Notes: generated by a model from the letters alone, not told the origin. A DNA stretch of 64,000 bases from an uncultured bacterium (GCA_905214725.1 CAJMNH010000004.1:143441-207440); one strand, 5' to 3'. Positions 47,599 to 49,615 are shown, counted from the stretch's first letter. Program-made: numbers and translations.

Positions 47599-47739
47599 TC
47601 AGTCCCATTCATCTAAATTAGGCGTTCCGCCATCATCGAAACCATCGGAGTCCACACCATCTTCGGTAGCGGCGAACCCTCGTTCGACGGTTACCGGCAC
47701 TTGCTCGATGCAAGGCGGAATATATCTATCGTACTTCAC
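47599..47739 (-). CDS. Small acidic peptide ORF (46 aa, GTG start), paralog of the ORF at 49457-49615
   Basis: Below the track cutoff. Translation (V/M)KYDRYIPPCIEQVPVTVERGFAATEDGVDSDGFDDGGTPNLDEWD shares the core with the upstream peptide. Its stop is 1 nt from the lipoprotein ATG (TGAaATG). No ATG is available. Confidence 0.4.
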   Translation of the reverse strand: MKYDRYIPPCIEQVPVTVERGFAATEDGVDSDGFDDGGTPNLDEWD

Positions 47740-47751
47740 GTAATCACGTTT

Positions 47752-47789
47752 AAAAAGGAGCTAAGAGGCGCAGACGACGCCTCTTAGCT
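47752..47789 (-). terminator. Rho-independent terminator between the two cassettes
   Basis: 12-bp perfect stem agctaagaggcg / cgcctcttagct with a 7-nt loop, followed on the minus strand by TTTTT. Begins 8 nt after the stop at 47797. Confidence 0.65.
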
Positions 47790-47796
47790 TCCGAAA

Positions 47797-49404
47797 TCAG
47801 TTTCCGTAAGCGAACGCAATATTCTTGATGTATACGATAGCCGAATCACCGGAAGGATTGTTCAACGTTCCCGGAAGAATAAATCCGACATAGGTATGAT
47901 CGCTCTCGGGGAAACCATTCTCAAGTACGACGGTATAATGGTTCCATGTCGCTGCGGGGTACCCCGATGAAGGTACCGTCGACCGTGTATACGCAGCCGG
48001 AGAGACCACGACCTGCTTGAGGGCGCTACGTCCGCCATCGCCGGTATTTGCATTCGTCGACGATATACCGCTCAATGTAATGCGATTTTCTGCGATCCAG
48101 ATCGGAATATTGTTGCTATCGTACGACATCAGACAGGCGGCATCGAACGATACGGCAACTTTCTGTCCTGCGGTATAGCCGGGCAACACATCCGACTTCG
48201 ACATATAGAACGCCGCCTGCCCATACTTTGTCAAGCCTGTATTGAAACCTTTTCGGTTGGAAGTATTGTCCAGAACAACCACCGCAGCCCCATCATCATC
48301 CGTTCTTACCAATGCATGGAATCCCACGCACGAACCTCTCTTTTCAAAACGAATACCGGCTCCGCCTCCATAATCGCCCGAGGGAGCGAACTCGCTCGCC
48401 AGATCGATCTCGACGGGAGCCGTCCACTCGTTGGTCAATTTCAGGTTGATCGCACGGAAACGCCCTGCGCCGAACGCAACATCCGTACCCGTCTTCACGA
48501 CGATCGACTGCGAGATGACGCGCACTTCACCCGTATAGATATCCTTTCCGGTACCGGTCAGAGTGACCACGATCCGATCCGTCGTATTGTTGTTCGTATT
48601 CGCTTTCAGCGTAAAGGGCTTTACGACCACCAGCGCATACTGATCGTCACGCGCCTTGCCGTTCTCATCCACATACGAATCCTGCGGAGTCAACGGATTC
48701 GCCAGATTTACGATCAGCTTGTTACTCGAAGCGGAAGCGATGGTTCCCGTACGATAGTTCACCTTCGTTACGCCGGTGACATTTTCGGGGAACAGAATCT
48801 CCATATTGGTGATCTTCAAATCATCGTATATCGGCTTATCGGCTTTTTTCACATAAAAACGCAGCGAAGAGAGCAAATGCGAGAAGGTCAGCTGGGGCCG
48901 CTGCACTTTGAGCGAAGGACCGTCGACCTCGGCGCGCATCAGATTGTAAATATCTTCGAAAGCATTTCCCTGCACATATCCGTCTTCCATCTGGGTACCG
49001 ATCGTATAGGTCACTTCATCGCCGCTGATACCCGCCGTACCGGCATTCGGCCACGGGTACATCAGTACATAATGCTGCGGATCCTCGCCCATCGGCGAAA
49101 GATCATGTCCCGAAAGGGAGAAGCGGGTCGACTCACCGGCAGCCTCGGAGACGAACGGCGCGGGAACATTCGTATAGGTGTAATCGGGCGCCGAAGTCTG
49201 AGGCGCATACCATGCAATCGTTTTATCGCCGACACTCCATGCGTATTTCAGGGTCGTATGGTCCAATTCCACACGCGACTCCTCGCCGATCGCATCGAAG
49301 GAGTAGACCTTCGACGAAGCCGCAACATCTTCGGTTGCATCCTGTTGGCAAGAGGTAAAACCGATGGCCGTAACAAGAAGAGCTAAAAATAACTTTTTCA
49401 TCAT
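47797..49404 (-). CDS. Fimbrillin (Mfa-like) family lipoprotein with uncharacterised C-terminal beta-rich domain
   Basis: 535 aa. Lipobox GFTSC followed by acidic QQDATED. Family-like features (YSFDAIGEESRV, WSVGDKTIAW, LTFSHLLSSLRFYV). The C-terminal about 200 aa is unrecognised. Confidence 0.7.
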   Translation of the reverse strand: MMKKLFLALLVTAIGFTSCQQDATEDVAASSKVYSFDAIGEESRVELDHTTLKYAWSVGDKTIAWYAPQTSAPDYTYTNVPAPFVSEAAGESTRFSLSGHDLSPMGEDPQHYVLMYPWPNAGTAGISGDEVTYTIGTQMEDGYVQGNAFEDIYNLMRAEVDGPSLKVQRPQLTFSHLLSSLRFYVKKADKPIYDDLKITNMEILFPENVTGVTKVNYRTGTIASASSNKLIVNLANPLTPQDSYVDENGKARDDQYALVVVKPFTLKANTNNNTTDRIVVTLTGTGKDIYTGEVRVISQSIVVKTGTDVAFGAGRFRAINLKLTNEWTAPVEIDLASEFAPSGDYGGGAGIRFEKRGSCVGFHALVRTDDDGAAVVVLDNTSNRKGFNTGLTKYGQAAFYMSKSDVLPGYTAGQKVAVSFDAACLMSYDSNNIPIWIAENRITLSGISSTNANTGDGGRSALKQVVVSPAAYTRSTVPSSGYPAATWNHYTVVLENGFPESDHTYVGFILPGTLNNPSGDSAIVYIKNIAFAYGN

Positions 49405-49456
49405 CGTAATTGTTTTTAAATTGATTTTTTCTTCGAAGATTCTTGAACAATACGCA

Positions 49457-49615
49457 TCAATACCCGTCGTTCAGCTCTCCGTCATCTCCGCCGGGAGTGA
49501 TCGAGCCTTCACCCGAAGCGGCGAATCCTGCCTCTATTTTCACGTCGAAGATCCGCACCTGAGGTGCCTCATAAGCGTTTTTTTGTATAAAAAGACGATT
49601 CATAATACGATACAT
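49457..49615 (-). CDS. Small acidic peptide ORF (52 aa)
   Basis: Below the track cutoff. MYRIMNRLFIQKNAYEAPQVRIFDVKIEAGFAASGEGSITPGGDDGELNDGY. ATG start (alternative ATG at 49603). 52 nt upstream of the lipoprotein gene. Shares the motif with the ORF at 47599-47739. Confidence 0.45.
   Translation of the reverse strand: MYRIMNRLFIQKNAYEAPQVRIFDVKIEAGFAASGEGSITPGGDDGELNDGY

Follow-up and report, generated by a model that had tools for sequence, protein, structure and literature searches.

Two short open reading frames (ORFs) in a 64,000-nucleotide stretch of DNA from an uncultured bacterium (GCA_905214725.1, CAJMNH010000004.1:143441-207440; this whole stretch is referred to as the window) encode small acidic peptides, P1 and P2, that belong to an unnamed, widespread small-protein family of gut Bacteroidales, its members being acidic and 35-65 residues long. 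Genes of this family almost always adjoin genes for Mfa-like lipoproteins, and P1 and P2 are almost certainly real, conserved partner genes. The reading tentatively favored here, with slightly less than balanced confidence, is that both are translated small acidic proteins serving as dedicated partners of the adjacent type V pilin-like (Mfa-like) lipoprotein. Type V pili of Bacteroidales are built from FimA/Mfa1 pilins, which are made as lipoprotein precursors, cleaved by an Arg-specific protease activity, and assembled by donor-strand exchange. Mfa-like lipoproteins constitute a large and highly variable class of surface adhesins and enzymes of gut Bacteroidales, the export, processing, and display of which are only partly understood.

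The peptide family

Both frames were found where a preliminary description of the window had placed them (P1, 49615-49457; P2, 47739-47599), with the translations given there. The GTG described as the only available start of P2 is the sole ATG, GTG, or TTG start in that frame; the codon aligned to it is TTG in the orthologous locus L007, and L011 and L013 carry an ATG further upstream. To judge from the alignment with the starts of P1 orthologs, the true start of P1 may be Met5 (ATG at 49603). The TGA stop of P2 is located 1 nt before the ATG of lipoprotein 2 (TGAaATG). The proposed paralogy of the two peptides is borne out by 35% identity over 37 residues (BLASTP E=2e-6). Their core DNA is identical at only 29 of 60 positions, with 7 of 20 third codon positions shared, and the 100 nt upstream of P1 and P2 are unrelated (21/100); the likeness therefore resides at the protein level, in keeping with the earlier statement that the motif is kept in diverged DNA. 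Six-frame translation of the window yielded no further copy of the motif.

A word-indexed protein search with the two-sequence alignment returned P1 itself as the sole match, and an exhaustive profile search was needed. Carried out against 1.84 billion representatives, the latter gave 140 matches at E<1e-3, 136 of which are peptides of 34-80 aa, each representing a cluster at 50% identity. Two long proteins among the matches (P0024 and P0051) are unrelated repeat proteins and were rejected. A second search with the family alignment collected 989 clusters at 90% identity, all of them unnamed or "hypothetical" and devoid of a Pfam domain; the family profile recovers P1 at E=1.5e-12. The two ORFs had been called unannotated, which holds insofar as no family name exists but not insofar as gene calling is concerned: metagenome gene callers do call P1 (P0001) and P2 orthologs (P0017 and P0018), an identical P1 protein has been called on 14 metagenome contigs, and NCBI lists one family member (MBQ4056317.1) as a hypothetical protein. 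In agreement with the earlier failure to assign the peptides to a named family, neither P1 nor P2 has a match in Pfam, NCBIfam, PHROGs, or PADLOC at E<=1. The lone match of a consensus-like member to PHROGs (E=0.078) was taken as noise. A full-text literature search on motif strings, on small proteins associated with fimbrillins or lipoproteins, and on type V pili revealed no description of the family.

As a working definition, family members comprise 34-80 aa, lack a signal peptide, and contain the core Y-x2-P-x-[VILM]-x4-[VI]-x-[VI]-E-x-G-[FY]-x2-[ST] at fixed spacing, followed by an acidic Gly/Asp-rich tail. P1 and P2 both conform to it in sequence and lie on the same strand as, and adjacent to, an Mfa-like lipoprotein gene. 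Among the 136 representatives, the core is preceded by a polar N-terminus of mostly 4-20 residues and follows the consensus Y-[E]-[A]-P-x-[VI]-E-[IV]-[IV]-[ED]-V-x-V-E-x-G-F-A-x-[ST] without any variation in length, its Tyr, Pro, Glu, Gly, and Phe being invariant or nearly so. A hydrophobic N-terminal stretch is present in none of the 136, which extends the earlier observation of a missing signal peptide to the family as a whole. The tail spans 7-30 residues, chiefly Gly, Asp, Glu, Ser, and Asn; it is poor in Cys and almost free of Lys and Arg, and the mean net charge of the family is -6.5. Of 245 distinct tails, 160 have an aromatic residue among their three final positions (70±7 after shuffling) and 79 have one at the very end (25.5±4.8 after shuffling); [DN]GG is likewise enriched. 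Tails differ between paralogs and stay conserved among orthologs, as exemplified by the P2 tail SDGF[DE]DG[GA]xP[ND]Lx[ED]WD, which is kept across species whose mid-core has changed. AlphaFold2, supplied with 116 sequences, models the core with a predicted local distance difference test (pLDDT) score of ~80 and without secondary structure of its own, and the tail with low confidence. According to this model, the core may be an extended segment in need of a partner.

Evidence for translation and selection

Orthologous contigs were reached via proteins related to lipoprotein 1 (54-78% identity) and provided loci L007-L014. Frame conservation and the ratio of nonsynonymous to synonymous substitution rates (dN/dS) had been proposed as checks. 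All orthologous contigs carry a P1-like ORF in frame, with amino-acid substitutions, and every contig extending far enough also has an in-frame P2-like ORF; both alternative frames on that strand are interrupted by stops. The dN/dS values are 0.14-0.16 for P1 and 0.08-0.19 for P2, as low as or lower than those of the neighboring lipoprotein genes (0.15-0.31). For the 20-codon core, 35 distinct DNA versions were compared. Entropy, summed separately for each codon position, amounts to 13.1 bits (first), 9.7 bits (second), and 29.9 bits (third), all synonymous codons are in use for the invariant Tyr, Pro, Glu, Gly, and Phe, and the conserved Ser is encoded by both AGY and TCN codons. RNAalifold found no consensus RNA structure in 36 aligned cores, and an Rfam search of positions 45000-50200 returned sub-threshold noise only, by which an RNA element was ruled out. 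Given the dN/dS values, the distribution of entropy over codon positions, and the lack of both an RNA structure and an Rfam match, selection acts on the peptide sequence.

Linkage to Mfa-like lipoprotein genes

Recurrence of the motif next to fimbrillin-like genes elsewhere had likewise been suggested as a check. A scan in which a single genome stood for each species, run with the pattern P[QV]VE[IV][IV]EVE derived from 20 consensus-like members, identified 22 loci via the peptide alone, the taxonomic range of which is a lower bound; further loci were obtained by looking up family members in public assemblies. A same-strand Mfa-like lipoprotein gene adjoins the peptide gene in all 22 scan loci, downstream in 20 and upstream in two. 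The distance between the stop codon of the peptide and the chosen ATG of the lipoprotein is 1-77 nt in 30 distinct pairs. Metagenome-assembled genomes (MAGs) named Bacteroidales account for 21 of the 22 loci (Bacteroides, Phocaeicola, Alistipes, Mediterranea, Candidatus Egerieisoma, and Coprenecus), and the remaining MAG is labeled Agathobacter, the gene neighboring the module there being Bacteroidales-like in appearance. Several copies can occur per genome: three loci are found in MAG JAFYPV01, two each in JAFQBF01 and JAFZFR01, and two in the window.

The linkage is selective with respect to the type of lipoprotein. When all fetched lipoproteins were sorted by a crude Mfa-like regular expression and by adjacency to a peptide, 25 had both, 9 the peptide only, 4 the motif only, and 24 neither; once the nine peptide-only cases had been reclassified by eye as Mfa-like, the counts became 34/4 versus 0/24 (Fisher p=2e-13). 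The window itself encodes ~12 candidate lipoproteins, and a peptide lies beside only the two with a W..GD motif. No other gene recurs beside the module in the annotated neighborhoods, where the neighbors are as diverse as seryl-tRNA synthetase, efflux pumps, and mobile-element genes.

The partner lipoproteins

The genes following P1 and P2 had been called fimbrillin-like, and both products match the Pfam family Mfa_like_1 (PF13149). Lipoprotein 2 does so with 37.7 bits (cut-off 27), and lipoprotein 1 with 26.6 bits (E=7e-6), just below that cut-off; lipoprotein 2 additionally matches PI-PLC-X with 30.7 bits (cut-off 23.1). The lipobox of lipoprotein 1 reads FTSC (Cys19, or Cys18 if counted from the second Met) and that of lipoprotein 2 CAGC (Cys20). 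Lipoprotein 1 also carries [ST]R and W..GD motifs. Across the 30 distinct pairs, the gene after the peptide encodes a lipobox Cys at residue 14-23, acidic residues after it, a short strand, an Arg ~25 residues past the Cys, and W..GD. This Arg, a candidate for the Arg/Lys processing site of type V pilins, is nearly invariant in 21-23 partner lipoproteins, the nearly invariant residues including R44 and W56. Mfa_like_1 was matched in 9 of 23 partners (Pfam, E<0.01), and a profile of their N-terminal domain matches the solved structure 3ufi (BACOVA_04980; E=4e-6). The C-terminal modules are variable and include BspA-type leucine-rich repeats (LRR_5), DUF285, Lcl_C, peptidase M64, Big_2, Glug, and PI-PLC-X.

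An AlphaFold2 model of lipoprotein 1, based on 10 sequences, is poor for residues 1-178 (pLDDT <35). Its confident middle and C-terminal parts match BF1858 (3t2l, a "cell adhesion protein" of B. fragilis) and carbohydrate-binding module (CBM) folds in Foldseek, the C-terminal third (47797-48330) resembling CBM4, CBM16, and CBM22 with a probability of ~1.0. Lipoprotein 1 may be a glycan-binding surface protein. A pilin fold of the partner lipoproteins is suggested by the Pfam, PDB sequence, and Foldseek matches, and they probably belong to the type V pilin superfamily or are closely related to it.

One group of loci departs from this pattern. In L015 (1874-9465), and also in L016 and L017, the peptide gene is flanked by the gene for a 1596-aa secreted protein and by that for a 404-aa protein related to GH32N/GH43, the signal peptide of which is of the ordinary type. 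This is the sole group found with a non-lipoprotein adjacent partner.

Proposed role and alternative explanations

The preliminary description had offered three roles, namely a partner or chaperone of the lipoprotein, a secreted or modified peptide precursor, and a regulatory leader peptide. All three are still live, and the evidence favors the first. Whether the peptide acts in trans and binds the lipoprotein is a question on which we are evenly divided. If it does, its target would be the protein encoded by the neighboring gene. The core would form an amphipathic strand, extended and studded with Glu, that terminates in the invariant E-x-G-F, and it would dock by β-strand addition to something common to all partners, be it the pilin-like N-terminal domain, the N-terminal precursor region, or a general handling machine. 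The acidic tail, rich in Gly and Asp and anchored by an aromatic residue near its C-terminus, would contact something specific to the cognate lipoprotein. Contact would take place in the cytoplasm prior to Sec export, the peptide acting as a holdase or escort for a β-rich protein prone to strand swapping. Cytoplasmic contact is the most economical version of the partner reading, given that the peptide has neither a signal peptide nor a linked exporter; as a specific claim, the cytoplasmic chaperone is nonetheless doubtful.

A number of observations weigh against a dedicated partnership. Four lipoproteins that are Mfa-like by the crude motif have no peptide within -40 to +160 nt upstream. In two of these cases (L026, 2741; L031, 1937), the gene is the second Mfa-like lipoprotein gene of an operon and lacks a peptide of its own, so that one peptide can precede two paralogous lipoprotein genes. 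In the other two (L035 and L041), an intact peptide gene is located 16 or 80 nt downstream of the Mfa-like lipoprotein gene, and no lipoprotein gene comes after it. The downstream protein in L015-L017 possesses an ordinary signal peptide and no lipobox. Frameshifts or stops in orthologous loci had been named in advance as contrary evidence: frames are mostly kept, but comparison of L013 (150-480) with L014 (143-473) reveals a 1-nt deletion in the P1-like tail. The lipoprotein 1 gene of L013 is also frameshifted: among the codons for its signal peptide, a T-run has gained one nucleotide (T5 to T6). The double frameshift could reflect an assembly error, joint decay, or slipped-strand phase variation. 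The database member P0101 has a frameshifted tail as well. Furthermore, profile-profile comparison found no likeness of the peptide to any part of a lipoprotein, by which an origin of the peptide from the lipoprotein was rejected. The family profile has no match at E<=10 to the sequences of the PDB, which includes solved type V pilins. On account of these two negative results, nothing marks the peptide as a pilin-derived donor strand. Finally, the mature lipoprotein is extracytoplasmic, so that a peptide devoid of a signal peptide could meet it only prior to export or by means of a hypothetical export route of its own.

The latter possibility leads to a bolder version of the partnership, in which an exported peptide serves as a donor strand in trans: its core would enter the groove of the pilin domain opened by Arg-specific cleavage, and the cognate tail would lock the pair. 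Such a peptide would act as a cap keeping adhesins and enzymes monomeric, or as a primer or anchor. We regard this version as improbable; if true, type V pilin-like surface proteins would be assembled by a principle that is new. Pairs of a peptide ligand and a lipoprotein receptor, if real, would be equally novel. By the same token, something mechanistically new in the assembly of type V pilin-like surface proteins is a long shot.

One alternative is an exported precursor, the core of which would be a leader for an export or processing machine encoded elsewhere and the tail a mature signal, a molecule akin to ribosomally synthesized and post-translationally modified peptides (RiPPs), or a ligand or strand for the cognate lipoprotein outside the cell. 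A conserved leader with a YxxP element followed by a hypervariable C-terminus is typical of RiPP and pheromone precursors, and the same layout is seen here, together with tails that are specific to each paralog and conserved among orthologs, and with several peptide copies per genome. In such a case, a modifying enzyme, a protein with a RiPP recognition element (RRE/PqqD), a peptidase, or an ABC exporter might be looked for nearby, and none recurs in the annotated neighborhoods; what the peptide is strictly linked to is a lipoprotein gene rather than one for an enzyme. A cleavage motif of the Gly-Gly type is missing, the spacing of the core differs from that of the lasso leader motif, and the tails are acidic, of low complexity, and poor in Cys, Lys, and Arg. 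We consider an exported precursor unlikely.

A cis-acting upstream ORF or leader, whose translation or nascent chain sets the translation or transcription of the lipoprotein gene by coupled termination and reinitiation or by a regulated pause, is in our view quite unlikely. The position of the peptide ORF as the first of its unit, with a stop codon 1-77 nt before the lipoprotein start and the TGAaATG arrangement at P2, speaks for it, as does the terminator-like hairpin 20 nt before the start of P2. Conserved nascent peptides upstream of secretion-related genes are known, as exemplified by SecM, MifM, and VemP. A purely cis-acting leader is disfavored by the reversed order in two loci (L035 and L041, where the peptide gene follows the lipoprotein gene and none comes after), by selection on the tail, and by the variable distance of 7-30 residues between core and stop. 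Tails conserved among orthologs and a C-terminal aromatic anchor would be needless in a pure spacer, an N-terminal signal or transmembrane (TM) segment as in force-sensing arrest peptides is missing, and no conserved RNA structure was found.

Alternatively, the conserved unit might be a DNA-level 5′ cassette, consisting of a promoter and first codons, that recombination, inversion, or gene conversion has homogenized among variable lipoprotein genes, in which case the peptide would be incidental. Inverted repeats in L050 and L051, a tyrosine recombinase gene upstream of the peptide in L050, L052, and L053, and an identical peptide before lipoproteins with different C-termini (L046 versus L047) are in line with it. 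Across genera, however, conservation concerns amino acids and not nucleotides, third positions are near saturation, and Ser switches codon families; P1 and P2 of the window share 29 of 60 core bases and no upstream similarity. Local recombination explains similarity within a genome but not the family-wide motif, and a recombinase site conserved as DNA is excluded because third codon positions vary. The cassette is accordingly very improbable. Chance intergenic ORFs without function, for which the short length, the non-ATG start of P2, and the lack of a curated family match might be cited, are refuted by the evidence for coding and selection, the size of the family, and its synteny, and their probability is close to nil.

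Four narrower candidates were also tried and rejected. A lasso-peptide leader is at odds with the spacing and with the lack of enzymes, and a double-glycine leader with the lack of a GG, GA, or GS site past the core. A classical signal peptide would require a hydrophobic segment, which is missing, and an amino-acid attenuator leader would precede a biosynthetic gene, which the downstream gene is not.

Organization of the locus

Positions of the features in the window are compiled in Table 1. To judge from its GC content of 57% and from the relatives found, the window probably derives from a member of Bacteroidales, perhaps of Rikenellaceae or Alistipes. The minus-strand unit is closed by a U32 peptidase gene that follows lipoprotein 2.

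Table 1. Features of the peptide/lipoprotein locus, in window coordinates.
Feature	Position	Strand	Remarks
AT-rich intergenic region	49616-50040		34% GC; separates the divergent seryl-tRNA synthetase gene from P1
P1, small acidic peptide gene	49457-49615	minus	52 aa from the first ATG; 48 aa if Met5 (49603) is the true start
P1 conserved core YEAPQVRIFDVKIEAGFAAS	49514-49573	minus	corresponds to the family core motif
Lipoprotein 1	47797-49404	minus	535 aa; signal peptide with lipobox Cys19; pilin-like N-terminal part; CBM-like β-sandwich C-terminal domain
Terminator-like hairpin	47759-47789	minus	13 bp, GC-rich, followed by T-run CCTTTTTAAA; between the lipoprotein 1 stop and P2
P2, small acidic peptide gene	47599-47739	minus	46 aa, GTG start
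P2 conserved core YIPPCIEQVPVTVERGFAAT	47665-47724	minus	
Lipoprotein 2	45813-47597	minus	594 aa from MKNLII...; lipobox Cys20; Mfa-like N-terminal domain and PI-PLC-X domain

The intergenic region upstream of P1, in a window of 57% GC, presumably holds the promoter of the peptide/lipoprotein module. Directly upstream of P1, at ~49626-49657 (minus strand), a block of the form GA(G/A)GA(C/T)GATTCTGAACATAATGTAA(A)TTT is kept in the window, L007, and L010, the surrounding intergenic DNA of which differs. This GATTCTGAACATAATGTAA block may harbor the -7 element of a promoter or a control site of a different kind. The Bacteroides -7 motif TAnnTTTG is uninformative in this respect, as it was found upstream of the peptides in 14 of 36 loci versus 9 of 36 on the reverse strand. 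L007 and L010 possess hairpins in the same place as the window hairpin, past which the GTG of P2 lies at a distance of 20 nt. The hairpin could be a terminator or attenuator separating the two modules, or an element for RNA stabilization or processing.

Recombination and mobile context

Modules are often located in variable regions rich in mobile elements. In L050 (2198-2358 and 5863-6069), two divergent modules share inverted repeats of 91 nt at 99% and 64 nt at 89% identity, and in L051 (4772-5023 and 5818-6069) an inverted repeat of 252 nt at 92%. The repeats take in the region upstream of the peptide ORF and the ORF itself as far as the core reaches; the tails and lipoproteins that follow differ. 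In L050, the segment between the modules contains a tyrosine recombinase gene, and the same recombinase gene is found upstream of the peptide in L052 and L053; in L051, the modules are separated by a PDDEXK_2 fragment and not by a recombinase gene. The arrangement in L050 and L051 could be invertible or shufflon-like. A PDDEXK_2 gene (Rpn-like nuclease/putative transposase) is also located just upstream of the peptide in several unrelated loci, namely L018/L019 (6849-7736), L046 (1701-2534), and L047-L049, its position in L051 being 5156-5680. HU-HIG, DUF6486, and BT4734-like_N genes occur near these loci. L046 (3005-4351) and L047 (2737-4473) encode an identical peptide (P0190) and an identical lipoprotein N-terminus and differ in the C-terminus of the lipoprotein (448 aa versus 578 aa with LRR_5), which suggests exchange of a C-terminal cassette between strains.

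Comparison with known systems

Class I chaperones of type III secretion resemble the peptides in several respects: they are small, acidic, devoid of a signal peptide, and encoded beside the gene of an exported protein, and they combine family-conserved with partner-specific parts. In contrast to these chaperones, which are folded dimers of ~15 kDa, the peptides measure 4-6 kDa and are predicted to be extended, and there is no homology between the two. To judge from the missing signal peptide, the peptides would be cytoplasmic, and binding of the lipoprotein is putative. To our knowledge, no such dedicated chaperones have been described for the Sec/lipoprotein-sorting route used by the substrate.

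With RiPP precursors the peptides share a conserved N-terminal segment with an invariant Y-x-x-P and a hypervariable C-terminal segment. The differences lie in the neighborhood, which offers unrelated housekeeping or mobile-element genes rather than biosynthetic enzymes, an RRE, a protease, or an exporter, and in a tail that is acidic, Gly-rich, and poor in modifiable residues. The lasso leader motif reads Y-x2-P-x-L-x3-G-x5-T-x and is followed by a core with Gly1 and Asp/Glu7-9; here, the invariant Gly is located 15 residues and the Ser/Thr 19 residues after the Tyr.

Like SecM, MifM, and VemP, the peptide is encoded by a short, co-oriented ORF immediately upstream of the gene for an exported protein, a position that holds in 30 pairs, and its sequence is conserved. 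Unlike in these arrest peptides, the distance from motif to stop is not fixed, a signal or TM segment is missing, the tail is under selection, and the order is reversed in L035 and L041.

Conserved small-protein families have been mined from human microbiomes on a large scale (Sberro et al., bioRxiv 10.1101/494179). The objects are of the same kind, that is, small ORFs of <=50 aa conserved across gut metagenomes and in conserved gene neighborhoods; the text of that paper makes no mention of a family associated with lipoproteins, fimbriae, or pilins. The ~1000 sequence clusters found here, at present "hypothetical" or uncalled, could be annotated as one family, and the peptide could be used as a marker for loci of Mfa-like surface proteins.

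The closest relation is to the type V pili. The partner lipoproteins resemble them in the Mfa_like_1 domain, a nearly invariant Arg ~25 residues after the lipid-bearing Cys, and likeness to solved pilin-like "cell adhesion" proteins. The loci differ in that they lack genes for stalk and anchor pilins, the lipoproteins carry enzyme or adhesin domains at their C-termini, and the peptide is unlike any pilin segment. We know of no small signal-less peptide in the Fim/Mfa systems described so far, and none was found in the literature on type V pili. An unnamed small protein is encoded beside Mfa-like genes in many genera (Bacteroides, Phocaeicola, Alistipes, Mediterranea, and others), which suggests that the biogenesis or control of these lipoproteins involves a component hitherto missed; a gene of 40-50 codons provides a simple genetic handle on it. 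Should the peptide dock as a strand, it would echo the strand complementation that operates in pili.

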